From a bacterium (lineage in GTDB: Bacteria > Bacteroidota > Bacteroidia > NS11-12g > UBA9320), in contig JAAEYY010000006.1 in the NCBI GenBank assembly GCA_018223105.1, forward strand, positions 72,806 to 136,805: DNA of 64,000 nucleotides, written 5' to 3'. The position numbers and the translations under genes are program-made. Numbering within the stretch: position 1 is the stretch's first letter; each line of letters opens with the position of its first letter. Below are positions 7,756 to 54,403 of the stretch, one piece after another. A model generated the notes under the pieces. The model searched no databases, had not been told where the DNA came from, and saw only the letters and a list, made by a program, of their open reading frames with translations.

Positions 7756-8643
7756 TTACTTTAAATGCTTCTCAGCATGATAGCTGGATCGAACCAATGG
7801 CCCACTTTCAATATAGTCGAATCCAAGATCTTCACCGATAGCTTTGTACTTCGCGAATTGATCCGGATGTACATATTCCGCCACCTTCAAATGACGACCC
7901 GTTGGTTGCATATATTGTCCTAATGTGATGATCTCAACCCCTACGTTTCTCAAATCTCGCATGGTTTCAATAACCTCTTCTTCAGTTTCTCCCATTCCGC
8001 ACATTAAACCGCTTTTCGTTTTCATGCCCTGAGACTTCAAGTATTCAAGCACAAATAAACTTCTGTCATACTTAGCCTGAACTCGAACTTCTTTAGTAAG
8101 TCTTCGTACAGTTTCAATATTATGAGAAACAATTTCCGGATGAACGGCAACAATGTTATCAATTTGGTCTGTTTTTCCTTGAAAATCGGGAATAAGAGTC
8201 TCCAAAGTAACGTCCGGATTAAACTCGCGAATAGCCTGTACTGTTTTTGCCCAGTGTCCTGATCCTCCATCCGGTAAGTCGTCTCTATCTACTGAGGTAA
8301 TTACAGCGTGTTTGATGCCCATCATGTTAATAGATTGCGCCACTTTAAATGGCTCTAAACTATCGAGAATATCGCCTTTTCCGGTTGCTACATTGCAAAA
8401 CTGACATGAACGGGTACAGGTATTACCCAAAATCATGAAAGTAGCAGTTCCTACTCCCCAACACTCCCCAATATTCGGACACTTTCCGCTTTCGCAAATC
8501 GTGTGTAATTTGTTTTCACGGACAAGTTTAAGCATGTCGCGGTATTTCCCGTCGCCCGGGATTTGAGTTTTCAACCAATCAGGTTTAACCCTCTTATTTT
8601 GCTTAATCTTTACTTCCGGTTTGTTCTCAATCTTGTTCGGCAT
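7756..8643 (-). CDS. lipA: Lipoyl synthase
   Basis: It has CxxxCxxC radical-SAM motifs (CTRSCQFC) and the lipoyl-synthase N-terminal cysteine cluster (CESGKCPNIGECW). Confidence 0.95.
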   Translation of the reverse strand: MPNKIENKPEVKIKQNKRVKPDWLKTQIPGDGKYRDMLKLVRENKLHTICESGKCPNIGECWGVGTATFMILGNTCTRSCQFCNVATGKGDILDSLEPFKVAQSINMMGIKHAVITSVDRDDLPDGGSGHWAKTVQAIREFNPDVTLETLIPDFQGKTDQIDNIVAVHPEIVSHNIETVRRLTKEVRVQAKYDRSLFVLEYLKSQGMKTKSGLMCGMGETEEEVIETMRDLRNVGVEIITLGQYMQPTGRHLKVAEYVHPDQFAKYKAIGEDLGFDYIESGPLVRSSYHAEKHLK

Positions 8644-30334: not shown

Positions 30335-31063
30335 ATGAGGCACGGAAAGAAATTTAATCACTTAGGACGCAAGAAAGGGCATAGAGATGCTATGCTTAGC
30401 AATATGGCAAGCAGCTTAATCTTGCACAAGCGTATCTTTACTACCACTGCTAAAGCAAAAGCGTTGAGAGTATACGTAGAACCTTTGATCACCAGATCAA
30501 AAGATAATACAACTCACTCTAGACGTGTGGTATTTAGCTACCTTCAAGATAAAGATGCAGTAAATGAACTTTATACCACTGTTGGTCCTAAAGTAGCTGA
30601 TCGTCCCGGAGGATATACCAGAATCCTAAAAACACACAATCGTTTGGGAGATAACGCAGACATGTGTATGATGGAGTTGGTTGATTTTAACGAACTTATG
30701 CTAGAAGCTCAAGAGAAATCTACAGCAAAGAGCGGTTCTAAACGTACACGTAGAGGTGGCAAGAAATCAACAGGTACATCTACTCCTAAAGCAGCAGCAG
30801 AGAAAGTAGCTAAGAAAGCAGAGGAAGTAGCCGAAGAGGTTAAAGATACTGCCGAAGAAGTTGTTGAAACTGCAGCTGAAAAAGTAGAAGAAGTAGCAGA
30901 AAATGTTGCCGAAACTACAGAAGACGTTGTTGAAGAAGTGAAAAATACGGCAGAAGAAGCAGTAGAAGCTGTGGAAGATGCGGTTGAAGATGCTACTGAT
31001 TCTAACGACGATTCATCAGATGATTCTTCTGAAGAAGATTCAGACGAGAAAAAAGACAAATAG
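30335..31063 (+). CDS. rplQ: 50S ribosomal protein L17 with a roughly 120-aa acidic, repetitive C-terminal extension
   Basis: The L17 core is [21 protein letters not shown]...MELVDFNE. The tail is rich in AEEV / VEEV repeats and ends [17 protein letters not shown]. Confidence 0.9.
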
Positions 31064-31117: not shown

Positions 31118-31483
31118 CTAAATTTTATAGATATCCGTGGGATTGTCGAGGATAATGGCCTTATTTCCGCGCACCGCTATAGGGCTTCTAACCAGATGCG
31201 GATTATTCATGAGTAAATAGACCCAATCTCGCTCCTCAAAATCCCGTCCTCTAATATTAGCTTGGTAATAGGGAAGGCTTTTATCTAGCAATTCCTTTGG
31301 CGACTTATTCAACTTACTTAGGATACTGTGCCAGATGGTTCCTGTGCCTTTCGTCTTTTGAATATCAAAGGCGTTTACATTGGATGAAATACTTCGGGCG
31401 TATGCCAGCGCCTTCTTAGCTTTTGAACATTCAGGATTGTAATAGATCTGAATTTCGGCAGTGGATGTGATGGTTTTATGCAT
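31118..31483 (-). CDS. ArsC/Spx-family protein (arsenate-reductase-like thioredoxin fold)
   Basis: The N-terminal CxxS motif is YYNPECSKAKKAL. It is about 121 aa. Confidence 0.6.
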   Translation of the reverse strand: MHKTITSTAEIQIYYNPECSKAKKALAYARSISSNVNAFDIQKTKGTGTIWHSILSKLNKSPKELLDKSLPYYQANIRGRDFEERDWVYLLMNNPHLVRSPIAVRGNKAIILDNPTDIYKI

Positions 31484-31672
31484 GAGCGTCTAGTTTTAGT
31501 CCTTATTAAGGTAATATACTGCTGGGAAAATTCAAAGTGGCTCTGTATAAGTAACTGATAAATAGCGTTCCAAATTTTCCACCATTTGTCAATTAGGAGC
31601 AATATTCAGTGAGTTGAGGGGCGGATTTAAATCTGAGCTTAACTTCCTTTGAAAACGCTCCACTTCCGAAAA

Positions 31673-32139
31673 ATGATATCTGTACTTATATTATTTGTAG
31701 TCATTATGCAACTGCCTAAGACAATATAGCTCAAGATACTCTATTAGAAGCAGGCATTATTCTCTATGCCACCTCTGTCCAGAAGTATTTTATAGACAAT
31801 AGCTATTTATCAGAAAATATATCTACTGAGACCTTTACAGTAGGGGCTTTTCTTAAGTTTAATGCTGGACTGTGGGCCATGCGATTTGGTGTGAGATTTG
31901 ATGAGATTAGCTACGTAAATACACAATCTAATCCGGAGGTAAAACTATTTTTTAGCTCATAACAACTCACCTTTGGTGGCCAAAACCTATTCAATGTTGG
32001 AAAGATTATGCCTATGCTTGCGCTTGACATTAGCTACAGCGAAAGTAGAATTGATGGCAATATGTTATCTAATCGTATAGCTGATTTCGAGTACTTGGAT
32101 ATAAACGCTCGATTCGGATATTTTGGCGGAATCTTCTAA
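31673..32139 (+). pseudogene. Disrupted gene for a small outer-membrane beta-barrel-like protein, with one frameshift and one in-frame stop
   Basis: Frame 1 reads a signal-peptide-like MISVLILFVVIMQLPKTI, then TAG. The +1 frame continues DNIAQDTLLEAGIILYATSV...PEVKLFFSS, then TAA, then QLTFGGQNLFNVGK...INARFGYFGGIF*. The terminal aromatic residue is typical of OMPs. No intact ORF longer than 80 aa is present. Confidence 0.4.
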
Positions 32140-32310
32140 ACAGGAGTGCGATTTCATATGACGAGTCTCCTAACCTTAACCTAAGAGACTGCTTTGCACT
32201 TACATTATCATAAATACAGAAATTATGAATTTGCAGCCAAGATAAAACCTTTGTTCATTTCGAATTCACCAATACAAACCTTCGGTTTGAGTTATAGGAT
32301 TGATGTGTGA

Positions 32311-32892
32311 TTAGTAAATTGAGTCAAATATTCTATAACTAATGTTTATTTGGCCTTGTACTATAGGTGATAGGTTGTAGTAAGTTCTACGTCTTTGAAA
32401 CTCATAGCCAAATGGGATAAGAAAACCTATACTAGGTTCAATTTTCACTCTTGATGTGGTTCTGATCGTATAGTTTATTCGGACTTCGGGTTCGAATGAG
32501 ACATAAGTTGAACGGAAATTAATTCCCCATGAATATAGATCTTCCTTAATTAAATTGAACGAGAGATTTGCGGAGACTGACAAATTGTTATTTCGTGATG
32601 CTTCTTTGAAGTAGATTCGCCGCTCTAACATACTTCCTATTTTTATAGCATGATTGTTTTGATATTCTAGAGGTACGACCCAACCTGTATTGAATGAAAG
32701 TATCGTACTTACAAAGCTGTTGTTTTGATGTTCAAAGAACAACCCGAAGGATCCAACAAAGGAGATTGGATGATGTAGATCTAAGCTTGGAGGACCATGT
32801 ACAACGGACGCTTGTGTCTTCGATGAATAAACAACCAAAACTAAGAGTAGAATCTTTTTCACAGAATAGGCATTATCAGTTAAAATTAGCAA
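32311..32892 (-). CDS. Putative small outer-membrane beta-barrel protein
   Basis: It has a signal peptide (KKILLLVLVVYSSKTQA), alternating-hydrophobic beta-strand patterning and a C-terminal aromatic residue (…DSIY). It is convergent with the pseudogene. Confidence 0.4.
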   Translation of the reverse strand: MLILTDNAYSVKKILLLVLVVYSSKTQASVVHGPPSLDLHHPISFVGSFGLFFEHQNNSFVSTILSFNTGWVVPLEYQNNHAIKIGSMLERRIYFKEASRNNNLSVSANLSFNLIKEDLYSWGINFRSTYVSFEPEVRINYTIRTTSRVKIEPSIGFLIPFGYEFQRRRTYYNLSPIVQGQINISYRIFDSIY

Positions 32893-33035
32893 AATAATTA
32901 CTGTAAACCACTAAAGATTGAAATAGATAACACTTTCTTAATAATGAAAAACTTAAACAAAATATTTCTACAAATACTAAAATCATATTTCCAATCTACT
33001 TTCTTCCTATTTTTGCTCTAGCAACCAAATAATCA

Positions 33036-33389
33036 ATGAAATACTTATATATCCTAATTCTAGCTCTGTTTCTAAGCGCGTGTTTCGGAGCGAAAACAAC
33101 ATCTAACCTGAGTCAAACAGATGTAGACCGTATGCAAGACAAGTACCCGGGCTATACATTGGAACAACTTCAAAAAGGCCATACCCTTTACACTGAACAT
33201 TGCGGTAACTGTCACGGACTTAAAGACCCAAAATCTGAACCCTTAGAAGAATGGGAAGAAATCGTTCCTGAAATGGCGGAGAAAATTGAAAAGAAAAAGG
33301 GATATACACTTTCACAAGATCAGCAAGATCTTATTTTGAAATATGTTATCACCATGGCTACTGCTGAGGAAGAGCAGAGTGAAGAATAA
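33036..33389 (+). CDS. Small lipoprotein with a CxxCH heme-binding motif (putative monoheme c-type cytochrome)
   Basis: It has a signal peptide and lipobox (LFLSACFG) and the motif HCGNCHG. A downstream Met is available as the sixth heme ligand. Confidence 0.45.
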   Translation: MKYLYILILALFLSACFGAKTTSNLSQTDVDRMQDKYPGYTLEQLQKGHTLYTEHCGNCHGLKDPKSEPLEEWEEIVPEMAEKIEKKKGYTLSQDQQDLILKYVITMATAEEEQSEE

Positions 33390-33413
33390 AAAAGGCCATG
33401 CTTTCACACGGCC
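33380..33413. repeat. Copy 1 of a 34/35-bp direct repeat containing a bidirectional terminator hairpin (GGCCATGC-TTTC-ACACGGCC)
   Basis: TGAAGAATAAAAAAGGCCATGCTTTCACACGGCC is repeated at 34841-34875. On the minus strand the hairpin is followed by a U6 run, terminating the 404-aa gene. On the plus strand it follows the CxxCH lipoprotein gene. Confidence 0.7.
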
Positions 33414-33447
33414 CTTGGGTTTTAATCTTTCTTTAATCTACGGGACT

Positions 33448-34662
33448 CTAATACCTATATAATGCGTTTGCTTTAGCGCTATCTATCGGCATATATTTTT
33501 TCTCTAAAAGGTAAACATCACCACCTGTATTCAAAACCTTCATGGCCAGAAGGTTTAATAAGGATACGTTGGGAGCTTCATGTTTCTCGTCCACACGTAA
33601 TTCTTGATTCTTAGGATCATAGACTCCAAAGACATCAGCTTTGTTTTCCAAGAATAGGGTATCGATTCTACCTGCAAAAGCAGCCGGTAAGATGTCATTA
33701 AGGTTTGCAGACGCTTTTCCGGTTCCAATCAATTCTGAGAATTGTTTCAGCTTTTTTGTTCTCTTCTCATCAAAGTAAGGTTGGACTAAATTCCATGCTT
33801 CTTCATGGAGCATTAAACTGTCTTTATCTGCCGGATTTCCAGAGATATGTTTTGAGAACACATTGCCATAAGAGCTGATCTCTTTATAAATTGGATAATA
33901 ATAGTCTAACGATGCAATAATTAAAGGTGTTTGTTGTTTGTCATGCAATAGATTTAAGATTCCGTTGTCTATGGCTCTGAAGTAACGCTCAAGTTCCTTT
34001 TTTTCTGTGCTTTCGGTGTCTTCCTGACCATGAAAAGTTCCAACACCTTGATTTCCTTGCTGTGTCCTAAATTGAACGCCTTTGTCTTCGTAGTCATAGC
34101 CTACACGGTCCTCTAATTGCCCCGGAATAAGGTCATCGATATTAATTTCAGTGATTTGATGTCTACTGCCTTCAAAGAACTTCACATCGTCCTTTTGTAA
34201 GGTTAAAAGATAGAACAATCCGTCACCATTGAAAAGTGGAATCAACGGTTTTAAGTAGAACTCGTTTGATAGGTAATTATAGGCTTCGAAATGAACAGGT
34301 ACAGTATGCATCTGAAATAGTTCTTCTGATAAGAAAATGGCTAAGCCATCGGATTGATATCTCCAGAATGTGCTGTCTTCAATTAATTCAGATATTGGTT
34401 TGGTGAAGGATTCAATTTCATCATCACTCATACCTTGATCTGATAATTTCGTCCTGATTGACTTTAGTTGATTCTTCAGGTTTATTGCATCTTTTCCTTC
34501 CATAGTCTCAGCTCCGGATCGATGGGTAGGTATAAAGATCGACACACAGAAACTACTGTGATGGTCTGATAATTTCAGTACTTCATTCTTTGTAAGGATT
34601 TCTTTGTTGTATTGACTTGTTCTATTCATAATGTTTTTTTCAGTTTTAGATGAGTTGTACAT
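33448..34662 (-). CDS. Hypothetical protein with an eRF1/Dom34-like (aeRF1-type release-factor fold) central and C-terminal region; possible baeRF / VLRF1-type
   Basis: Three regions resemble the release-factor fold. The central loop GVGTFHGQEDTE sits where the GGQ loop would be. EKKELERYFRAIDNGI follows it, like eRF1's EKRHNYVRKVAE. The C-terminus NTGGDVYLL...ANALYRY resembles eRF1 domain 3 (GGIGGILRY). There are no transmembrane helices or signal peptide. Confidence 0.45.
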   Translation of the reverse strand: MYNSSKTEKNIMNRTSQYNKEILTKNEVLKLSDHHSSFCVSIFIPTHRSGAETMEGKDAINLKNQLKSIRTKLSDQGMSDDEIESFTKPISELIEDSTFWRYQSDGLAIFLSEELFQMHTVPVHFEAYNYLSNEFYLKPLIPLFNGDGLFYLLTLQKDDVKFFEGSRHQITEINIDDLIPGQLEDRVGYDYEDKGVQFRTQQGNQGVGTFHGQEDTESTEKKELERYFRAIDNGILNLLHDKQQTPLIIASLDYYYPIYKEISSYGNVFSKHISGNPADKDSLMLHEEAWNLVQPYFDEKRTKKLKQFSELIGTGKASANLNDILPAAFAGRIDTLFLENKADVFGVYDPKNQELRVDEKHEAPNVSLLNLLAMKVLNTGGDVYLLEKKYMPIDSAKANALYRY

Positions 34663-34840
34663 AGCCAGATATATTTCAAGAAGAACTTTTATCGATCTTC
34701 CATTGTTGGTTGAAGGCTGTTAAACTAGTACAGCTGATATCCTTATAAGATACAAAAAAAAGCGCGTAAAGCCAAGTGTTTCCGACCTTCGTTTGCAGGT
34801 TTGACTCCATTAATGAAGTATACATTCTTCTTACTTGTAA

Positions 34841-34875
34841 TGAAGAATAAAAAAAGGCCATGCTTTCGCACGGCC
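34841..34875. repeat. Copy 2 of the 34/35-bp direct repeat and terminator hairpin (GGCCATGC-TTTC-GCACGGCC)
   Basis: It matches copy 1 at 34 of 35 positions, with one extra A and an A-to-G change in the loop region. On the minus strand it forms a perfect 8-bp stem with a GAAA loop and a U7 run, terminating the M42 peptidase gene. Confidence 0.7.
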
Positions 34876-34901
34876 TTTTAATTTCTAGTTTCCTGTCTTT
34901 C

Positions 34902-35972
34902 TTATTTAAAGTATCTGAAATCGTGATCTGCTTTTAACTGAATCACAAATTCATACATCAATTTAATAACGCTTTCTATGTCGTCATAAGCTACTGTTTC
35001 AACCGTAGTATGCATGTACTTCAATGGTAAGGAGATTAATGCAGAGGCTACTCCAATATCGCTGTATGCAAAAGCATCGGTATCAGTTCCTGTAGATCTG
35101 CTTGCTGCCATTCTTTGGAATGGAATCTTCTTCTTCGTGGCAACATCAATCACCATCTTCAAAAGATTGTTCTGAACAGCAGGCCCTGTAGTAATACAAG
35201 CACCACCGCCACATTTCGTGTCGCCTTGCTCTTTCTTGTTATACATAGGAGAGTGGGTGTCATGACAAACGTCGGTAACAATAGCCACATTAGGCTTTAT
35301 ACGACGTGAAATCATTTCTGCACCTCTTAATCCAATCTCTTCTTGAACGGCATTGACGATGTATAGACTAAAAGGAAGTTTTTTCTTGTTCTCGTGAAGC
35401 ATGCGTGCTACTTCGGCAATCATAAAACCACCTGCACGGTTATCTAATGCTCTTCCAACCACATATTTCTTGTTGAGTTCCATTACATCAGCATCAAAAG
35501 TGACAACCGTTCCTACATGGATGCCCATTTTCTCAACTTCTTCTTTAGAATCAGCTCCAACATCAATGCTTAAATTTGATAAACTTGGTTGAGGTTCTTT
35601 AGAACGATCTCTAACGTGAATAGCAGGCCATCCGAAAACGCCATCTACCATTCCTTTGTCTGTATGGAGTTTAACCCTCATAGATGGTGCAATCTGATGA
35701 TCACTTCCACCGTTTCGGATAACGTAGATGTATCCTTTATCATCGATGTAGTTCACAAACCAAGCAATTTCGTCGGCATGAGCCTCTAAAACCACTTTGT
35801 ACTCTTTCCCTGGATTAATAACACCCATGGTTGATCCGTAAACATCCACCTCATACTCATCAATATAAGGCTTTAAGTACTCCAACCACAATTGCTGTCC
35901 TGGAGTTTCAAATCCGGTTGGCGAATTGTTGTTTAAATATGCATGTAAAAATTTCTTGCTTGCTTTTCTCAT
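34902..35972 (-). CDS. M42 family metallopeptidase (glutamyl aminopeptidase / FrvX-like)
   Basis: It is 356 aa with M42 metal-binding regions (HADEIAW, DNRAGG, QEEIGLRGA, and a D..H region). Confidence 0.8.
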   Translation of the reverse strand: MRKASKKFLHAYLNNNSPTGFETPGQQLWLEYLKPYIDEYEVDVYGSTMGVINPGKEYKVVLEAHADEIAWFVNYIDDKGYIYVIRNGGSDHQIAPSMRVKLHTDKGMVDGVFGWPAIHVRDRSKEPQPSLSNLSIDVGADSKEEVEKMGIHVGTVVTFDADVMELNKKYVVGRALDNRAGGFMIAEVARMLHENKKKLPFSLYIVNAVQEEIGLRGAEMISRRIKPNVAIVTDVCHDTHSPMYNKKEQGDTKCGGGACITTGPAVQNNLLKMVIDVATKKKIPFQRMAASRSTGTDTDAFAYSDIGVASALISLPLKYMHTTVETVAYDDIESVIKLMYEFVIQLKADHDFRYFK

Positions 35973-36016: not shown

Positions 36017-39000
36017 TTAATCACGGTCTTTGGCTGTTTCACTTTCCACAGATCCTTTTTGAGGACCCAAATCGTCGTAGGCCATTTCAAGATCTTCAAA
36101 AGTTTTAGGTTCAGTTTTCGATTCGCCTCGAACTATTCTTTTAGTCCAGGCAGTCAATTGATCACTTAGATAATACATCACCGGAACAATTACAAGTGTC
36201 ATGAAGGTAGCGAAGATTAATCCGAAGATTACCGTCCAAGCCATAGGACCCCAGAATGAAGCATTATCACCTCCAACATAAAACTGTGCATCAAATTTTG
36301 TGAGTAAGGTGTAGAAGTTCACATTCATTCCTATCGCCAAAGGCACCAGACCTAGTACCGTTGTGATTGCAGTAAGTAAAACCGGTCTCAATCGGGTTCT
36401 ACCACCGTCGATGATGCTATTCAATACATCTTGCTCCGGAAGTCGATCACCCGGCTTTAAACCGAGTTCAACACGTTTTCTTTTTCTCAAGAGATTGGTA
36501 TAGTCTATCAATACAATCGCATTGTTTACAACAACCCCTGCCAGTGAGATAATTCCAATACCACTCATCATGATAGAGAACGGCATTCCGGTGATACCAA
36601 ATCCGAGGAATACTCCGATGGTACTAAAGAGTACAGAGAACATAATAATCAATGGACCTACTACCGAGTTAAACTGGGTTACAATAATCAAGAAGATGAT
36701 AAAAACTGCGAGAAGCATAGCACCCGCTAAGAACTCTGTTGAAGCAGTTTGCTCCTCTTGCTCACCTGTGAACTTAAACTCATATCCGGGCTTGGTTTCG
36801 TGGTCTGCTAAAACTTCTTTGAATTTTGCCACAATCTCATTTGCGTTAGCACCTTCTTCTACTTCAGAATAAATTGAGATTACACGATCCATATCTTTTC
36901 GTTTAACCGTACCGTAGGTAGAGTTGTAGTCAATATTGGTTACTGCTGAAATAGGTACCTGAGAAATCTGACCGGTAGCCATGTTTCTGAACGTGATGAC
37001 TGTGTTGAGGAGGTTTCCTAAATTGTATCGATAATCTTCTTTAAATCGAAGTTGAATCTCATAATCATCCTCACCTTCTTTATATTTTCCAATCTCCTTA
37101 CCTAACAATGCAGTTCTCAAAGTACTCGCAATTTGAACGGTACTCAAACCAAATCTTCGGGCAGCTTCTCGGTTGATGGTAATCTCCAACATGGGTTTAC
37201 CTAACTCAAGATCCGTCTTTAATTGGTCAACACCCGCAATATCGGCGTCCTCCATTTTCTGTTTAATTTTCTCGACCTCGTCGATCAAGGTAAGGTAATC
37301 TTCACCTTTCACTTCAACATTAATCGGTTTTCCTACAGGAGGTCCTACAGCATCCTTGCTAAAGGTAAGTCTAGCTTCCGGGAAATCTTTACATGCATTT
37401 TTTATTTCCTGCATGATGATGGAAGTAGATACATTATCTTCAATAAAAACCCTATCGCTGTACTCGAGGAAGGAAACAGTAATACGCGCTTTATGTGGAG
37501 AAGAACCATTCTGTGGACCTTCGTTTGGATCTGAAGTTTTCTCACCAACTTGGGCTAACATAGCTTCCACTAAGGTGTCATATGGCTGAATAGCGGCATC
37601 TATGCGCTCTTCTAATTTCTTCGTGATCTTATCTGTTTTATAGATATCCGTTCCTAATGGCGCTTCAACAAAAATGTTAACGTACTTCGGCTCATTATCA
37701 GGAAAGAACACAATCTTAGGGTTGCTCATTCCGAAGAACATCAATGAAAAAATCATTAAAAGTATAGTACCTACGAAGAAAACAATGGGACGACGCTTGC
37801 TTAATGCAAACCTTGCAAAATTGGCATAACCATTCTCTAGTTTCGGCATGAGGTTCTCCATGAAGTAATCTCCGCCTGGTGATAAAACATATCTGCTCAA
37901 CAACGAGAAGAAAATCCCGGCAAAAAAGAGTCCACCAATCACTTTAAAGGTAGGAGTGAAGAAAAACAGCATTCCCACAATAAACATGATTGCAATCCTC
38001 AACCAGAATCTATTGCCTTTACTTACTTTATTCTTTCCTACCTTCATTAGGTCAGCGGTAAGCACCGGATTCACAACCAATGCCACAAAGAGAGAACTCG
38101 ACAGCACAATTATTAAGGTGATTGGCAGGTACTTCATGAACTCACCCATAAGGTCTTTCCAAAACAAGAGTGGAACAAATGCTGCTACGGTAGTTGCAGT
38201 AGATGAGATGATAGCTGATGCTACTTCACCAGTTCCTTGTTTAGAAGATTCTTCCGCATCAAGTCCAACTTCACCCCGCAATCGGTAGATGTTTTCAACG
38301 ACCACAATTCCATTATCCACCAGCATACCTAGAGCCAGGATCAAAGAGAAAAGTACCATCATGTTGAGGGTAGTTCCTGCAAAATGCAAGATTGCAATAC
38401 CCATAAGCATGGATAGAGGAATAGCAATACCTACGAACATCGAGTTTCTTACACCCAAGAAGAAAATGAGAACGATAACCACGAGAATTACCCCCATAAT
38501 TATACTGTTCTCCAAGTTATCTACCATCATCGTGGTAAACTTCGACTGGTCATTCGTAACTACTATTTCCAGATCTTTTGGAAATACATCTGCTTCAGCT
38601 TTTTTGATTATGCTTTGAATTCCGGCTGCGGCGTCCAATAGGTTTCCACCACTTTTTTTCTTTACATCCAGAGTAACAACGGGGCGCTGATTTAATCTCG
38701 CGAAACTGGTGGGTTCTTTCTGTCCGAAATGAACTTCGCCAATATCTCTTAGGTATACAATGTTCTGGAACTCATTTTTAATAATGACATTCTCAAGTTC
38801 CCTGTAATCATCAAATTCTCCATCAATACGTATCGATCTTCTTGTGATATCTGAGCCTTCTACACTCTTAATGTCACCACCACTCATGGTGATGTTTTCT
38901 CCTGAAATGGCTTGCTCTACATCGTTCAATGAAATCTCAAGCGCTTCCATCTTCACACGATCAATGGCAATTTCAACTTCTTCTTCGGTTAAACCGGTAA

Positions 39001-39553
39001 TATCTACTGATGAAACTTCAGGTAAATTCTCAAACTCGTCTTTCAGATACTCTGCATAGTCTTTTAATTTATCCTGAGAGTAATCACCACTTACGTTTAC
39101 GTTCATTACCGGGAACTCAGAAAAGTCGAGCTCCATTACATTAGGATCTGCCGGTAAATCATTCGGTAAATCGGGTTTAGCCCGGTCTACTGCGTCTTTT
39201 ACTTCTTGAAGAACCTCATTTGACGGTAAGTCTAACTCAAACTCTGCTACTATAATCGAAAAATCTTGTATCGAGGTTGATGTGAGTTTCTTAAGGCCAC
39301 TAATAGTGTTGATCTCCTTTTCTATAGGACGCGTAACCAGATTCTCCATATCAATAGGAGAGTTACCCGGGTAAGGAGTGTTTACATATATCGTAGGCTG
39401 TTTTATCTCAGGAAAACTTTCCTTAGGCATGCTACTGTAGCTCGAGAAACCAATGATACTGATGATTACGATCATCACATATACACTGATTCTGTTGTTC
39501 ACAGCCCAAGATGAAAGTTTAAATTCCTTTATTACTTCCTTTATTTTGCTCAT
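36017..39553 (-). CDS. Efflux RND transporter permease subunit (AcrB/HAE1-like) with a C-terminal tail
   Basis: It is 1178 aa with 12 transmembrane segments and two large periplasmic loops, which is the typical RND architecture. Confidence 0.9.
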   Translation of the reverse strand: MSKIKEVIKEFKLSSWAVNNRISVYVMIVIISIIGFSSYSSMPKESFPEIKQPTIYVNTPYPGNSPIDMENLVTRPIEKEINTISGLKKLTSTSIQDFSIIVAEFELDLPSNEVLQEVKDAVDRAKPDLPNDLPADPNVMELDFSEFPVMNVNVSGDYSQDKLKDYAEYLKDEFENLPEVSSVDITGLTEEEVEIAIDRVKMEALEISLNDVEQAISGENITMSGGDIKSVEGSDITRRSIRIDGEFDDYRELENVIIKNEFQNIVYLRDIGEVHFGQKEPTSFARLNQRPVVTLDVKKKSGGNLLDAAAGIQSIIKKAEADVFPKDLEIVVTNDQSKFTTMMVDNLENSIIMGVILVVIVLIFFLGVRNSMFVGIAIPLSMLMGIAILHFAGTTLNMMVLFSLILALGMLVDNGIVVVENIYRLRGEVGLDAEESSKQGTGEVASAIISSTATTVAAFVPLLFWKDLMGEFMKYLPITLIIVLSSSLFVALVVNPVLTADLMKVGKNKVSKGNRFWLRIAIMFIVGMLFFFTPTFKVIGGLFFAGIFFSLLSRYVLSPGGDYFMENLMPKLENGYANFARFALSKRRPIVFFVGTILLMIFSLMFFGMSNPKIVFFPDNEPKYVNIFVEAPLGTDIYKTDKITKKLEERIDAAIQPYDTLVEAMLAQVGEKTSDPNEGPQNGSSPHKARITVSFLEYSDRVFIEDNVSTSIIMQEIKNACKDFPEARLTFSKDAVGPPVGKPINVEVKGEDYLTLIDEVEKIKQKMEDADIAGVDQLKTDLELGKPMLEITINREAARRFGLSTVQIASTLRTALLGKEIGKYKEGEDDYEIQLRFKEDYRYNLGNLLNTVITFRNMATGQISQVPISAVTNIDYNSTYGTVKRKDMDRVISIYSEVEEGANANEIVAKFKEVLADHETKPGYEFKFTGEQEEQTASTEFLAGAMLLAVFIIFLIIVTQFNSVVGPLIIMFSVLFSTIGVFLGFGITGMPFSIMMSGIGIISLAGVVVNNAIVLIDYTNLLRKRKRVELGLKPGDRLPEQDVLNSIIDGGRTRLRPVLLTAITTVLGLVPLAIGMNVNFYTLLTKFDAQFYVGGDNASFWGPMAWTVIFGLIFATFMTLVIVPVMYYLSDQLTAWTKRIVRGESKTEPKTFEDLEMAYDDLGPQKGSVESETAKDRD

Positions 39554-39574
39554 CGCTTTTTGCTTTAGCTATTC

Positions 39575-40708
39575 TTATTCAATAATCTTTACTTCATCGC
39601 CTTCAATTACTGCATTGTAACCTTCGGTGATGATAATATCTTCCGGGTTTAAGCCGGACTTTATGATCGTTTCTGAAGCAAACTCCTCTTGTATTTCTAT
39701 ATATGACTTTTGAACGATTCTCTTTTCGCCCTGACTCTTTAAGGTTAAGATATAATCTCCTTTGGCGTCAGTGTTAATCAATTTAGTTGGAACAGCAATT
39801 ACATTGTCCTCAGCAAAATCGTAAGCTGTAATGATGGCCAATAAGTTTGGCTTCATTTTATCGAGATGAGACGTAGGTTTTACATAAACTGAGAAAGTTC
39901 TGTTATTCACATCAATCACATTTCCAACCGCATCAATTTTCTCCGTAAGTTCCAAATCAAGAGAAGGGAAATAAACTTTTACCTGATCTCCTTTTTTCAT
40001 CTGACCTACATAGCTCTCAGAAACTGATGCTTTGATTTTAATATCTGAAAGATTTACGATTCTAGCTACAGGTCCACCGGTCATGCTACCAACGAGTTCA
40101 CCTTCATTCGCCATAATCTCATCAACAGTTCCATTGATAGGAGAGATGAGTGTGTATTTCCCGAGTTGAGTTCGCGCTGTTTTAATGCTGTTTTGTAGAT
40201 TCTCGTAATTGTTCTTAGCTTGAAGATATTGCATTTCAGAGCCTATGTTCTTCTCCCATAAACTTTTTTGCTTTTCGTAATTGGTTTTAGCCAAGGTTAA
40301 GGCATTCTCCAATTCTGCAATTTGAGATTGAGCAACTGAACCATCAAGGCTAGCAATGGTTTGTCCTTTGCTAACTCGTTGGCCTTCAGAAACATAGATC
40401 TTAACTATTTTTCCCGGCACTTCTGGTGTAATCATCACGTTTTGATCAGATTCTACCAAACCTTGAATTTGGAAAGGGTTTTTAAAGGTACCTTTAGATA
40501 TTGCCTCAGCACGAACAGCAATAGCATTGCTTCTCATGTTAGTGTCTATTGCTGCAATCTCTTCTTTTAAAGTAGCGATAGAATCTTTTAATGCTACAAG
40601 ACGAGCTTCTTGTTCTTTAAGTAAGTTCTTCTTTGCATCAAGTGTGCTCTCTTCTCCGGTGCCACATGCTACTAGAAAGAGAATAAAAACTGGGATTAGG
40701 TATTTCAT
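39575..40708 (-). CDS. Efflux RND transporter periplasmic adaptor subunit (MFP/HlyD family), lipoprotein
   Basis: It has a lipobox (LVACGTG) and coiled-coil plus barrel-sandwich regions. It sits between tolC and the RND gene. Confidence 0.85.
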   Translation of the reverse strand: MKYLIPVFILFLVACGTGEESTLDAKKNLLKEQEARLVALKDSIATLKEEIAAIDTNMRSNAIAVRAEAISKGTFKNPFQIQGLVESDQNVMITPEVPGKIVKIYVSEGQRVSKGQTIASLDGSVAQSQIAELENALTLAKTNYEKQKSLWEKNIGSEMQYLQAKNNYENLQNSIKTARTQLGKYTLISPINGTVDEIMANEGELVGSMTGGPVARIVNLSDIKIKASVSESYVGQMKKGDQVKVYFPSLDLELTEKIDAVGNVIDVNNRTFSVYVKPTSHLDKMKPNLLAIITAYDFAEDNVIAVPTKLINTDAKGDYILTLKSQGEKRIVQKSYIEIQEEFASETIIKSGLNPEDIIITEGYNAVIEGDEVKIIE

Positions 40709-40726
40709 TGTTTTGTGTTCGGCTGT

Positions 40727-42115
40727 TTATAGGTTTCCGTAAGCTTTGTCTAAATTGATTTTCGCTACACTTAATTCGTAAAGTGCATTGAGGTAGTTGG
40801 TTTGAGCTATAGTTAAATCACGTTCTGCATTCACCATCTCGAAGGAGCTACCTACGCCTTCTTGAAATTTAATTTTTGTGGTATTATAAATGGATTCTGA
40901 TAATTCAATGTTTTTCTTTTGGATTTCCAGATTTCGATATGCATTTCTGTAAGTAGTTTGCGCTTGCGCGATTTCAAGGGCAATACCGTTTTTGGCTTGC
41001 TCCAAAGAGTTAGTGGTTTTTAAGATGTCAACTCTTGCCTGGTCTGCTTTTGATTTCTTATACAATCCATCGAAAATGGGGATGCTCAGACTTAGACTGT
41101 ATGAAGACAATCCAAACCATTCATTTCCTAATTGATCGAACTGGTCTTTCTGACCGAAAGTGTTAAAACCGTAGTTTGCATTTAGATAAATGGTTGGAAT
41201 GTATCCTACTTGATATCTTTTGAGATCTAACTCATTTAAAGCTTGCTGTTGCTCCAAAATTTGTATTTCTATTCTGTTTGATAGGTCAGCGCTCTCAACA
41301 AATTCAGGAGAAAATGTAGTCTCATCAAACTCGGGAAGCGCTGTTGTTAAACTGATTTCCTGATTCACGTCTAAGCCCATGCTGTTTAACAATAACTTCT
41401 TCGTTAGCTCCGCCTGGTTTTGAAGATTGTTGATATTGATTTCCACCTGTGATACAGATAATACAAGTCGATCTACATCTAGTTGCTCTGCATAACCGGC
41501 ATCGTATAATTCTTGAGTTTCTTTTTTCAGTTTCTGCAAGTTCTCTAAACTCTTTTCAAGCTGTCCAAGGTTCTGTTCTGAAATCAAAGCCATGTAATAC
41601 GCTTTATAAACTCCTTCTTTAACATCTATGGCAGATTTAGACAGGAGGAGCTGACTCACATTCACAAACTCAGACGCCGCTTTCAATCCTAAAAAGAAGG
41701 TTCCGTCGAAGATGAGCTGCTGCATACCAACCGTTGCCTGTAAGGAGTATGGAACTCCAAATTGCGCAGGGAAAGATCCGAAACTTCTATTGGGGTCGGG
41801 TTGCACAAGACCTTCTTGAATCAGAACTCCGTAAACTGAAGGAGAAATGAAATCAGGAAATACCTGCGTTGCAATTTCCAGGTTATGGGTGAAATTTACA
41901 TTTCCATTGACTTGGGGTAGTCCCATGGATCGAACTTCATCTACCTGATTTTCAGCATACTCAATGTCGAGTGCTGCATTTCTGTGAGCTTGATTATTGG
42001 CTAAAGCGGTGCTTATGGCTTCGTCAAGGCTTATCTCGAGCACGTCACCCGGCTCTTGTTGAGCGAATGCTATGCTAAATGGTAGAAGTAAAACTAAGCT
42101 TAAGAGTTTTTTCAT
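40727..42115 (-). CDS. TolC-family outer membrane efflux protein
   Basis: It has a signal peptide and the two-repeat TolC architecture. It is 462 aa. Confidence 0.85.
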   Translation of the reverse strand: MKKLLSLVLLLPFSIAFAQQEPGDVLEISLDEAISTALANNQAHRNAALDIEYAENQVDEVRSMGLPQVNGNVNFTHNLEIATQVFPDFISPSVYGVLIQEGLVQPDPNRSFGSFPAQFGVPYSLQATVGMQQLIFDGTFFLGLKAASEFVNVSQLLLSKSAIDVKEGVYKAYYMALISEQNLGQLEKSLENLQKLKKETQELYDAGYAEQLDVDRLVLSVSQVEININNLQNQAELTKKLLLNSMGLDVNQEISLTTALPEFDETTFSPEFVESADLSNRIEIQILEQQQALNELDLKRYQVGYIPTIYLNANYGFNTFGQKDQFDQLGNEWFGLSSYSLSLSIPIFDGLYKKSKADQARVDILKTTNSLEQAKNGIALEIAQAQTTYRNAYRNLEIQKKNIELSESIYNTTKIKFQEGVGSSFEMVNAERDLTIAQTNYLNALYELSVAKINLDKAYGNL

Positions 42116-42756
42116 AATTTCAAATGTTCGTTGAGGTAGTCTGTTCCTTTGTTAGTACAAATACTATTTAAATGATAATGAATTGCTTCTGCTTGTAAAT
42201 TGGGGATTTCAATGTTTTGACCAATTGCAAAACCGGGTTGAACCATGTTTTGAACCAGGCATACATAGATGGAAGCAACAATGTCAATATTGAAATTTTC
42301 TCTGTATAGGCCTTCTTTACGACCTTGTATTATATTCTGTTTAATATTTTTAAAGATGAATTCTGTGGTGAAGTTTTGGAATTTTTGCCAGCAATTAGGA
42401 TAATACTTTTGTATATCATACATAACAGCCGGATTCATCCCTTCAAGGCTTTTATGAACGTACTTACTCATTTCTAGCACTTGCTCTATAGCATTTGTTG
42501 CTTCCTCAAAGCAAGTATTGCAAACATCCTTGTCGTTACTGAGGTGGTTGTCGAATACCGTATTCACCAATTCTCTTTTGTCCTTAAAGTGCTGATAAAT
42601 GGTTTTCTTGCTCATACCCAACTCACGAGCGAGATCGTCCATACTCACACTTTTAATGCCGATTCTCATGAAAATCGACTCGGCTTTTTTTATAATGAGG
42701 TCTCTCGTTTCCAAAATTCGGTGCAAATGTATACGCAGGAAACTTTCAAAATGCAA
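42112..42756 (-). CDS. TetR/AcrR family transcriptional regulator
   Basis: The HTH region is SVSMDDLARELGMSKKTIYQHFKDKRELV. It overlaps tolC by 4 nt. The start may be internal. Confidence 0.8.
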   Translation of the reverse strand: MHFESFLRIHLHRILETRDLIIKKAESIFMRIGIKSVSMDDLARELGMSKKTIYQHFKDKRELVNTVFDNHLSNDKDVCNTCFEEATNAIEQVLEMSKYVHKSLEGMNPAVMYDIQKYYPNCWQKFQNFTTEFIFKNIKQNIIQGRKEGLYRENFNIDIVASIYVCLVQNMVQPGFAIGQNIEIPNLQAEAIHYHLNSICTNKGTDYLNEHLKL

Positions 42757-53581: not shown

Positions 53582-54403
53582 ATGGATAAAGAAAAGGCTT
53601 TCAAAAAAATTCTCGTTGCCTTTGATAATTCTGAGTCGTCTCGGAAGGCAATGCAAAAGGCTTGTGACATAGCCGAAAAATTTAATTCAAGTATCACCGC
53701 ACTTTTTGTAACTACCGATGCCAACAAGCAATTTGAAGATGCTAAGACATTTTTAGAGCAATTTTCAACGGCTAAAGGAATTGAAGTTGAGATCGAAGAG
53801 ATGAAAGGGGGTAAGGTTTACGAGCAAGTAATTAAAATGGAAAAGTCGGGTGCTTTCCAGCTTATTCTCATTGGAGCTCATGGTAAAAGTGGGTTTATCC
53901 AATCCTGGATCGGAAGTAATGCATTTAGGGTTGTAAGCTCGTCAAATTGTCCTGTTATTACAATTCAGGAGCATACAAGTGAAAGTACCTTTAAAAACAT
54001 TGTAGTGCCTTTGGCTGATTCTAATACTACGCGGCAAAAAGTGCCTTATGCTGCAGTTTTAGCTCAAGCATTAGGAGCAACTTTGCACATTTTTGGCGTA
54101 AGTAAATCCGACAGTAATGATGCAGTTAACCATGTTACCGCATATGTTAGACAAACGGAGCGTTACTTTATGGAGCGAAACATAAAGTATACCGTAGATT
54201 CTGCTTTTGGAGTGAAAGTACCGGAAGCATGCATTGAACATGCAAAGAAAGTGGATGCAGGTTTGTTGCTGATTATGACAGAAACTGAAAGTGCCGGTGT
54301 GTTTATGGACAGCTATTCACAACAACTAGTGAATACTAGCCCTATACCGGTTATGTCTATTCACTCTAGAGATACTATGCTCACAGGAGCAGCAGGATAT
54401 TAA
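53582..54403 (+). CDS. Universal stress protein (tandem UspA domains)
   Basis: Two UspA-like halves are present (ILVAFDNSESS...; LILIGAHGKSG). Confidence 0.8.
   Translation: MDKEKAFKKILVAFDNSESSRKAMQKACDIAEKFNSSITALFVTTDANKQFEDAKTFLEQFSTAKGIEVEIEEMKGGKVYEQVIKMEKSGAFQLILIGAHGKSGFIQSWIGSNAFRVVSSSNCPVITIQEHTSESTFKNIVVPLADSNTTRQKVPYAAVLAQALGATLHIFGVSKSDSNDAVNHVTAYVRQTERYFMERNIKYTVDSAFGVKVPEACIEHAKKVDAGLLLIMTETESAGVFMDSYSQQLVNTSPIPVMSIHSRDTMLTGAAGY

Follow-up and report, generated by a model that had tools for sequence, protein, structure and literature searches.

A repeated predicted terminator brackets a Balon-like gene in a variable spot of a Bacteroidota genome

Introduction

A gene that stands alone between two direct repeats raises the question of whether the repeats are the ends of a mobile unit or a trace left by ordinary genome evolution. 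An islet of this kind occurs in the window (the whole 64-kb stretch of Bacteroidota DNA that was analysed), where a first-pass annotation had noted a 404-codon gene between 34/35-bp direct repeats, had read the repeats as bidirectional terminators and had proposed that the gene was inserted between an M42 peptidase gene and its original terminator, with duplication of a target or att-like site. The identity of the repeats, the nature of the enclosed gene, the state of the locus in related genomes and the signs of mobility are considered here in turn, and the ways in which the repeat may have been doubled are then weighed.

The direct repeats and their terminator hairpins

The repeat, detected by reading of the sequence and by a repeat finder, has the consensus TGAAGAATAAAAAA(A)GGCCATGCTTTC[A/G]CACGGCC and is present in the same orientation at 33380-33413 and 34841-34875. 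The copies (34 and 35 nt, respectively) differ by one indel in the A-tract and one substitution, as annotated at first; the two terminators are ~94% identical overall, non-functional tail bases included, and the longest perfect run common to both is 18 nt. The repeat finder returned them as a 29-nt pair at 93% (D1) and a 14-nt pair at 100% (D10), with a spacing of 1461/1462. The pair is unique in the 64 kb: a 26-mer with up to 3 mismatches matches exactly two sites, compared to 0.00 expected from shuffles, and a degenerate hairpin pattern recovers the identical two. A probe for the repeat, beside the full 35-mer, is AAAGGCCATGCTTTCNCACGGCC. Copy 1 (33380..33416, with a 34-nt core at 33380-33413 and similarity that fades by 33416) covers the final 10 nt of a cytochrome-c lipoprotein ORF, including the stop codon, and copy 2 (34841..34878, with a 35-nt core at 34841-34875) lies 26 nt past the stop codon of the M42 gene. 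An independently built Logan contig (L001/L082) has the identical structure with both inter-copy differences, which makes an assembly artefact unlikely.

The repeat has the form of an intrinsic terminator (8-bp stem, GAAA loop and U-tract), and both copies are strong predicted terminators on the minus strand, which is the strand of the M42 and islet genes. T1 (33391..33416, minus strand), assigned to the Balon-like gene, has 11 pairs, in which a stem of GGCCGUGU/GCAUGGCC is lengthened by flanking pairs, closes on the GAAA loop and is followed by UUUUUUAUU. T2 (34852..34879, minus strand, 12 pairs), assigned to the M42 peptidase gene and located where relatives carry their M42 terminator, is the same hairpin with a loop-closing C-G instead of U.G and is followed by UUUUUUUAUU; the single substitution between the copies thus preserves minus-strand pairing (C-G to U.G). 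The distance from stop codon to hairpin is 34 nt for the Balon-like gene and 26 nt for M42, and TTTTTT(T)ATT is directly 3' of both stems. Minus-strand folding gives -19.2 kcal/mol (z -4.0) for T1 and -21.7 kcal/mol (z -6.6) for T2, with none of 200 shuffles as good. Only six sites of such strength are present in the window, and both copies are called as terminators on the minus strand. Rfam returns sub-threshold matches only, and these are caused by the hairpin.

The description of the copies as bidirectional needs to be qualified. Copy 2 gives a good fold on either strand (-17.3 kcal/mol on the plus strand, where no gene ends at this point), but copy 1 is weak on the plus strand, at -10.5 kcal/mol and a z of -0.2, which is no better than shuffled sequence, and is without an adjacent U-tract.

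The identity of the copies does not stop at the A/T-tract but takes in 8 nt of non-functional sequence beyond it, and its edges are sharp. The tail TGAAGAAT, which is dispensable for terminator function, is identical in both. The proposal that the copies share descent, rather than being terminators of independent origin, is borne out by this extension and by the sharp boundaries. In alignments of the flanks, similarity ends no more than ~3 nt outside the 35-mer (p=0.3-0.65); a remnant of the M42 spacer to the right of copy 1 and a remnant of the cytochrome-c 3' end to the left of copy 2 were both non-significant.

The enclosed Balon-like gene

The repeats bracket a single gene with its upstream region, as first annotated, and 20 further ORFs examined across the window are all housekeeping. 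The enclosed gene (33448..34662, minus strand) is assigned by profile and PDB matches to the Balon-type (baeRF/aeRF1-like) putative ribosome hibernation factors. Its longest ORF is 404 aa, compared to 393 aa in the Logan contig (start 34629) and 383 aa in the NCBI record (MBR9860138.1, GYB22_05215). The protein matches Pfam baeRF_family7/3/6 with E-values of 1e-41 to 1e-32 (2.6e-41 for baeRF_family7) and, over its full length, PDB 8RD8_B (E 9.7e-15, residues 21-384 against 9-361). The NCBIfam model of the AOC03_06830 family, NF052287, is matched by residues 30-404 over positions 3-361 of 361 at 144.5 bits, which is below the equivalog cutoff of 330 bits; thus, the protein is a homologue and not an equivalog. 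Neither NIKS nor GGQ is present, and the lack of these two aeRF1 motifs is a criterion for Balon (PMC10901736). No 'HP' dipeptide occurs anywhere in the protein. Judged by its sequence, the enclosed gene encodes a full-length homologue of Balon and a putative ribosome hibernation factor.

Upstream of the gene, 178 nt of non-coding DNA (34663..34840, minus strand) separate T2 from the first ATG. This region has no similarity to the related loci or to the cytochrome-c 3' end and presumably carries the promoter of the Balon-like gene. The homologues of the protein number 713; the nearest is only 64% identical, whereas the M42 peptidase reaches 88%. The neighbours of Balon-family genes differ from one examined genome to the next, as also reported in the Balon paper (PMC10901736). 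A tandem duplication is rejected, as the second Balon-like copy expected under that model is absent from the window.

The variable spot between M42 and the ribosomal protein genes

The islet is part of a larger variable segment. To its right is the M42 family aminopeptidase gene (34902..35972, minus strand), which is preceded by an RND efflux operon (36017-42756) and forms the conserved right-hand anchor of the spot; the left-hand edge is an ArsC/Spx-family gene (31118..31483, minus strand) that adjoins rplQ-rpoA. Between them, and convergent with the Balon-like gene, is the gene for a 117-aa CxxCH lipoprotein of the small mono-haem cytochrome c family (33036..33389, plus strand), the closest homologue of which resides in an unrelated genomic context.

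Four syntenic relatives (L005-L008) have the order RND-M42-terminator-(ArsC)-rplQ-rpoA and are without the Balon-like, cytochrome-c and orf193 genes; the ArsC gene adjoins M42 in L005 and L008 and is absent from L006 and L007. The three genes are, therefore, lineage-specific occupants, and the proposal that the Balon-like gene is an addition to the locus is supported by its absence from all four relatives. The empty site predicted by the first-pass annotation, in which the cytochrome-c gene would be joined to M42 through a single hairpin, was not found; M42 instead abuts ArsC or rplQ in the four relatives. Compared to L005 and L008 (M42-terminator-ArsC), the lineage-specific segment spans 31484..34840 and includes an 830-nt non-coding gap, orf193, the cytochrome-c gene, T1 and the Balon-like gene with its upstream region. 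The relatives lack the CxxCH gene and orf193 as well, so the variable segment is ~3.4 kb and four genes deep. Among related genomes, the M42-rplQ interval holds zero, one or four genes. Relatives with at least 90% protein identity are absent from the collections, the 90% clusters having no other members, and the search for population variants by exact-protein look-up returned only the Logan contig. With no relative close enough, an empty site is not seen, nor is an ancestor with one copy in the order cytochrome c-terminator-M42.

The M42 terminators of the relatives share the position of T2, an architecture of 8 bp and 4 nt, and an invariant ATGGNC followed by a T-tract, a comparison that rests on the conserved 3' arm and T-tract, as the 5' arms were misaligned by MAFFT. 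The tail of the L005 terminator (TTTTTTTATTTTCAT) resembles that of the window (TTTTTTTATTCTTCAT). By these sequence features, the hairpin is one of the M42-terminator lineage. The lipoprotein's last codons (...SEE*), which were annotated as part of copy 1, do overlap the repeat; given the lineage of the hairpin, they may derive from the terminator tail. The C-terminal tails are variable across the cytochrome-c family and thus cannot polarise the duplication.

Origin of the duplicated terminator

The explanation that best fits these findings, and that is rated somewhat better than even, is that one terminator was duplicated locally, most probably as the Balon-like gene inserted into the variable spot. 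T2, beside M42, would be the Rho-independent terminator of M42 itself, and T1 would be a second copy that now ends the Balon-like transcript. The gene would have been added, with its own upstream region (~180-240 nt), between M42 and the end of the rpoA-rplQ/ribosomal protein cluster, and recombination at the terminator, or next to it, would have produced the duplication in the same event. A circular fragment with the same terminator may have entered by a single crossover (Campbell-type), or DNA from a related strain may have been joined by a one-sided homologous step plus an illegitimate one; by either candidate route, the new gene would end up with the 35-nt junction on each side. As efficient RecA recombination is quoted to need 23-27 bp of perfect identity (PMC12074656) and the islet repeats, at 18 nt, are below this threshold, the Campbell-type route would be inefficient. 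The outcome would be an insulated monocistronic unit. T2 would block transcription that reads through from the RND operon and M42, which would leave the hibernation factor gene dependent on a promoter of its own, presumably one that responds to stress. T1 would keep the Balon-like transcript from extending in antisense into the cytochrome-c gene that converges on it. We infer the promoter and terminator activities of the islet, as well as the recombination route and the coupling of duplication to insertion; an att-like or TSD mechanism is likewise hypothetical.

A check of composition and codon usage for foreign origin, as suggested by the first-pass annotation, revealed no deviation of the islet from the host. 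The baeRF gene has z-scores of -1.2 for GC, 0.25 for GC3 and 0.11 for codon score, and its tetranucleotide distance is within 1 sd. This host-like composition fits an old or intra-lineage event, but the near-identity of the repeats would in that case need selection or a recent origin. In an unlikely alternative, the Balon-like gene was already present, with another terminator or none, and 35 nt of the M42 terminator were later copied over 1.46 kb by template switching or short-patch gene conversion and kept as a good terminator. In its favour, the host-like gene suggests long residence and the near-identical repeats a recent event; what was duplicated is little more than a functional terminator with 8 nt added, and its hairpin is of the M42-terminator lineage. 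Such copying, however, has no flanking homology to guide conversion, duplicative movement of a bare 35 nt over 1.4 kb is without a well-established mechanism, and a landing that also supplies the stop codon of the cytochrome-c gene would be a further coincidence.

Improbable, and more so than later copying, is a dispersed repeat family, in which a REP/MITE-like terminator element has many genomic copies and two of these flank one gene by chance. In a 64-kb window of a several-Mb genome, a third copy would usually be missing even if the family had up to ~100 members. The hairpin core is also seen as a terminator in other, unrelated organisms: a metagenome scan found it at two unrelated loci (L083 and L084), neither from the source organism. 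Yet the two metagenome matches share the hairpin and not the TGAAGAAT tail, and no third copy of the repeat is detected in the 64 kb at 3 mismatches, in ~1.2 Mb of related loci or in the viral collection (0 hits). Two members in the same orientation 1.46 kb apart would also be unlikely if the family were sparse.

A site-specific att system might be suggested by the direct repeats at both ends, as an att-flanked island would have: a recombinase encoded at another place would act on the hairpin as its core site, or the islet would be what is left of a larger integrative element, and in both cases a unit of promoter, gene and terminator could excise as a circle and re-insert. The repeats are of att length, have dyad symmetry and surround a single accessory gene, and there is a precedent in the recombinase-less wzy locus of Salmonella Typhimurium, which excises between direct repeats (PMC12074656). 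The evidence against makes this reading very unlikely. Domain searches uphold the annotated absence of an integrase or transposase from the 64-kb window, whose genes also lack tyrosine/serine recombinase domains, and no tRNA or tmRNA gene is present in it. Terminal inverted repeats, which an IS or transposon insertion with target-site duplication would have, are absent (the only match is of 15 nt, 53-67 nt inside the interior ends), as is compositional deviation, and the interior consists of the gene plus 178 and 34 nt, with no pseudogene debris. Five other loci with Balon homologues (L085, L086, L087, L089 and L090) are without flanking repeats beyond weak AT-rich chance matches, and plasmid or phage homologues are rare and distant. 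A reading as an integron attC site is likewise rejected: attC sites are far longer than this hairpin, and the integrase is absent. Least credible among the mobile readings is a terminator-targeted system of single-gene cassettes in Bacteroidota, with a recombinase acting in trans and units that excise and re-insert at terminators; if real, it might provide reversible gain and loss of a ribosome hibernation factor. The islet is most likely a product of ordinary genome evolution and not a new mobile element.

Independent or convergent terminators have in their favour that the combination of a GC-rich 8-bp stem with a GNRA loop is a favoured one and that an identical 30-nt terminator occurs in an unrelated contig, but are effectively refuted by the shuffle expectation of 0.00 and by identity that passes the functional part, as is an assembly artefact by the agreement of two assemblies.

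Implications

Local duplication of the terminator upon insertion, if correct, would make the locus a clean small example of a stress-gene transcription unit that entered a hot spot of the core genome, in which a new gene beside the ribosomal protein cluster re-uses the terminator of its neighbour. A literature search for 'duplicated terminator' as a described phenomenon found nothing relevant. With the locus comes a Balon-type factor of Bacteroidota whose gene is predicted to be monocistronic and insulated from neighbouring transcription; this may help studies of its regulation. No new class of element is proposed; the main value is a documented negative, namely that single-gene islets bounded by repeats need not be mobile.

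Comparison with known systems

Similarly to the islet, the wzy locus of Salmonella Typhimurium is a single accessory gene in the core chromosome between direct repeats (attL/attR), with no associated recombinase gene, and loop-out would leave one copy of the repeat in both. At wzy, 113-bp repeats that are identical and asymmetric flank the gene, and its excision and circular form are demonstrated (PMC12074656). By contrast, the islet has 34/35-nt repeats with two differences, a longest perfect run of 18 nt and a terminator hairpin.

REP/BIME and MITE-type repeats are, like the islet repeat, short, palindromic and intergenic, are found in more than one copy and overlap with terminator function. 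Unlike these families, the islet repeat is present as two adjacent copies in the same orientation, lacks inverted ends and has no further members in the sequence that could be searched. Rho-independent terminators, including the bidirectional ones of convergent genes, share with both copies a GC-rich stem and tetraloop flanked by A- and T-tracts. Copy 2, like the bidirectional terminators, is predicted to fold well on both strands, whereas copy 1 is predicted to be effectively unidirectional. Ordinary neighbouring terminators are normally unrelated in sequence; those of the islet are ~94% identical.

Balon of Psychrobacter urativorans (AOC03_06830; PDB 8RD8) aligns end-to-end with the islet protein, and both are without NIKS and GGQ. 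Balon has an HP motif that contacts the decoding centre, a lasso loop and an EF-Tu beta-loop; the islet protein is without the HP dipeptide. Close homologues of the islet gene adjoin genes of RaiA/HPF type, as reported for Balon, whereas the islet gene itself is monocistronic and outside a stress operon.

Integration hot spots between core genes are filled by homologous recombination of the flanks. The M42-rplQ interval is similar in that its content varies between conserved genes; however, flank-mediated replacement alone yields no duplicated junction, and the 35-nt repeat therefore needs an extra step.

Repeat pair and enclosed gene

The islet consists of a Balon-like open reading frame (ORF; 33448-34662, minus strand) and its upstream region, bracketed by two direct repeats, copy 1 (33380-33413, TGAAGAATAAAAAA-GGCCATGCTTTCACACGGCC) and copy 2 (34841-34875, TGAAGAATAAAAAAAGGCCATGCTTTCGCACGGCC). 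Sequence reading and a repeat finder both give a spacing of 1461/1462 nt and place the repeats exactly where the first-pass annotation had, in direct orientation. The left neighbour of the gene encodes a 117-aa CxxCH lipoprotein of the small cytochrome-c family (33036-33389, plus strand), and the right neighbour is an M42 aminopeptidase gene (34902-35972, minus strand), followed by an RND efflux operon.

By homology, the enclosed gene adds a member to the known Balon/baeRF family. Its product (MBR9860138.1, GYB22_05215, from an uncultured 'bacterium' MAG) matches Pfam baeRF_family7/3/6 (E 1e-41 to 1e-32) and, over its whole length, the NCBIfam model NF052287 'AOC03_06830 family ribosome hibernation factor', at 144.5 bits under an equivalog cutoff of 330. 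It also aligns end to end (E 1e-14) with PDB 8RD8 chain B, the Psychrobacter urativorans protein Balon, an aeRF1-like hibernation factor (PMC10901736). In keeping with Balon, the islet protein lacks both NIKS and GGQ; it does not, however, contain an HP dipeptide anywhere. Three start calls within 34599-34662 (minus strand) yield 404 aa (longest ORF), 393 aa (Logan, Met12) or 383 aa (NCBI). The last of these is the length of most homologues; thus, the non-coding stretch upstream may in fact measure about 240 nt rather than 178 nt.

The best Balon-like homologue is 64% identical, and the neighbourhood of the closest homologues differs in every contig examined. In two contigs (L086, 4573-6152; L087, 2052-3631), a 64%-identical homologue directly follows a Ribosomal_S30AE (RaiA/HPF-type) gene, in line with the Balon paper (PMC10901736), and DUF1451 and mechanosensitive-channel genes are nearby; this is a stress/hibernation neighbourhood, unlike that of the window. 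Flanking repeats at five Balon-homologue loci amount to weak AT-rich chance matches, and homologues on plasmids or phages are few and distant, at no more than 37% identity. The window holds no second Balon-like copy, which rules out a simple tandem-duplication origin of the islet. A tandem universal stress protein gene (Usp, two domains; 53582-54403, plus strand) lies about 19 kb from the Balon-like gene and is thus unlinked.

Hairpins as predicted terminators

Copies 1 and 2 are both predicted by a terminator caller as minus-strand terminators (T1 and T2) and make up two of the six terminator-type sites found in the whole window under stricter, author-set criteria. The minus-strand RNA of each has an 8-bp GC-rich stem with an A-U extension and a GAAA tetraloop, followed by UUUUUU(U)AUU, and folds at -19.2 kcal/mol in copy 1 (z -4.0 against shuffles) and -21.7 kcal/mol in copy 2 (z -6.6). 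The sole substitution between the copies turns the loop-closing C-G into U.G on the minus strand and thus keeps the pairing. On the plus strand, wobble pairs become A.C mismatches; copy 1 folds no better than shuffles (-10.5 kcal/mol, z -0.2) and runs into CTTGGG instead of a U-tract, while copy 2 folds well (-17.3 kcal/mol) at a place where no plus-strand gene ends. The 'bidirectional' of the first-pass annotation therefore holds in part: both copies fold stably on the minus strand, and copy 2 also does so on the plus strand. The strand bias points to T1 and T2 as terminators of two minus-strand genes, the Balon-like ORF and M42, and the hairpin appears to be M42's terminator and to be essentially unidirectional.

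The first bases of the repeat recur in inverted form over 7 nt (ATTCTTC ... GAAGAAT, 34824-34848) immediately to the left of copy 2, which on the minus strand could allow a small additional hairpin past T2; in such AT-rich sequence this is probably chance. A JGI metagenome scan finds the hairpin core in two unrelated contigs, both without the tail; thus, the GNRA-loop core can recur independently. In one of the two, L083, an alcohol dehydrogenase gene is followed by a 30-nt terminator that matches copy 2 exactly (AAAAGGCCGTGCGAAAGCATGGCCTTTTTT, 7815-7844).

A variable spot downstream of M42

With the M42 protein as anchor, the window's genes were mapped onto 80 loci from species-representative genomes. 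Four relatives (L005-L008; M42 79-80% identical) keep the frame RND-M42 ... rplQ-rpoA, with no gene between M42 and rplQ in L006 and L007 and an ArsC-family gene alone in L005 and L008; the Balon-like, cytochrome-c and orf193 genes are absent from all four. The M42-closest genomes, L002 (88%) and L003 (85%), are rearranged downstream of M42, and a 15-billion-protein collection holds no protein at least 90% identical to any of the three gene products. Given zero or one gene in the relatives' interval, this is a variable spot, with ~3.4 kb extra (31484-34840) in the window's lineage. The earlier proposal of a single-gene insertion with junction duplication is reasonable in outline, if unproven: the gene is indeed absent from these relatives, but the variable segment extends over more than one gene, and the relatives' loci do not show the expected empty site, in which a single hairpin would separate M42 from the cytochrome-c gene.

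A terminator built like those of the window also lies after M42 in L005, L006 and L008: its stem has 7-8 bp and its loop 4 nt, the 3' arm, ATGGNC, is invariant, and a T-tract is present. The L005 tail TTTTTTTATTTTCAT resembles the window tail TTTTTTTATTCTTCAT. Judging by this likeness, the hairpin is probably of the M42-terminator lineage, with copy 2 in the ancestral position. On the same grounds, the cytochrome-c gene may have taken its final codons from the terminator tail, rather than the reverse; C-terminal tails of this family vary after a conserved '...KYVITMxxA', and thus protein comparison cannot say which came first.

Elsewhere in the variable spot, the 830 nt between the ArsC-family gene (31118-31483, minus strand) and orf193 (31484-32310) are filler with no credible ORF, Rfam match or similarity to the relatives' loci. 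The orf193 gene (32311-32892, minus strand; 183 aa in Logan) has no Pfam match, and its sequence looks like that of a small outer-membrane beta-barrel. In GC and codon score it lies about 2.3-2.6 sd lower than the genes of the window, and it may have been acquired separately. Outside the spot, ribosomal protein L17 (gene 30335-31063, plus strand) is 242 aa long, of which roughly 100 aa form an acidic, Ala/Glu/Val-rich C-terminal extension; relatives' L17 match residues 1 to about 145-195 only.

Origin of the islet

The most economical account, favoured somewhat above even, is that the M42 terminator junction was duplicated locally upon insertion of a Balon-type gene with its own upstream region into the variable spot. 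Two routes are each plausible: single-crossover entry of a circular fragment with the same terminator, or entry of DNA of a related strain by homologous recombination on one side and illegitimate joining on the other. The outcome would be an insulated single-gene transcription unit, in which T2 would block M42 read-through and T1 would protect the convergent cytochrome-c gene. The copies share at most 18 nt of uninterrupted identity, less than the 23-27 bp that efficient RecA recombination is quoted as needing (PMC12074656); thus, the islet is expected to be fairly stable by now.

The leading rival, though an unlikely one, is that the terminator alone was copied at a later time. Similarity outside the repeats, in 200-nt flanks and in lenient gapped alignments of the 35-60 nt beside the hairpins, is that of shuffles (p = 0.2-0.65); thus, the duplicated unit is short (34/35 nt, at most about 38) and sharp-edged. 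Less probable still is a dispersed REP-like family with other members outside the 64 kb; within the window, a 26-mer search allowing three mismatches returns copies 1 and 2 only (no site in any of 100 dinucleotide-preserving shuffles), as does a degenerate stem pattern. That the repeats serve a trans-acting recombinase as att sites, or are remnants of a decayed island, is improbable. No inverted repeats occur at the islet ends and no tRNA gene in the window, and the reported lack of an integrase or transposase is upheld, with no recombinase domain inside the islet or among 20 ORFs sampled elsewhere along the window (SecDF, RecG, DnaE, RecO, PorZ, UvrD and similar housekeeping proteins). A comparison of composition, as the first-pass annotation had suggested, sets the islet apart from the rest of the window in neither GC (z -1.2), GC3 (z 0.25), codon usage (z 0.11) nor tetranucleotides. 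Chance or artefact is scarcely credible, since the gene order, both copies and their spacing recur in a Logan contig that was built independently (SRR7663132, L001/L082), and since the 8-nt stretch TGAAGAAT past the A/T-tract, unneeded for terminator function, is identical in both copies, which argues, as first proposed, for common descent over convergence.

Comparison with known systems

No new kind of element is needed to explain the islet. Among documented cases, the Salmonella wzy locus comes closest: there, one gene flanked by 113-bp direct repeats is excised with no recombinase known for it (PMC12074656). The likeness lies in a single gene between direct repeats; by contrast, the repeats of the islet are much shorter, imperfect and themselves a predicted terminator.
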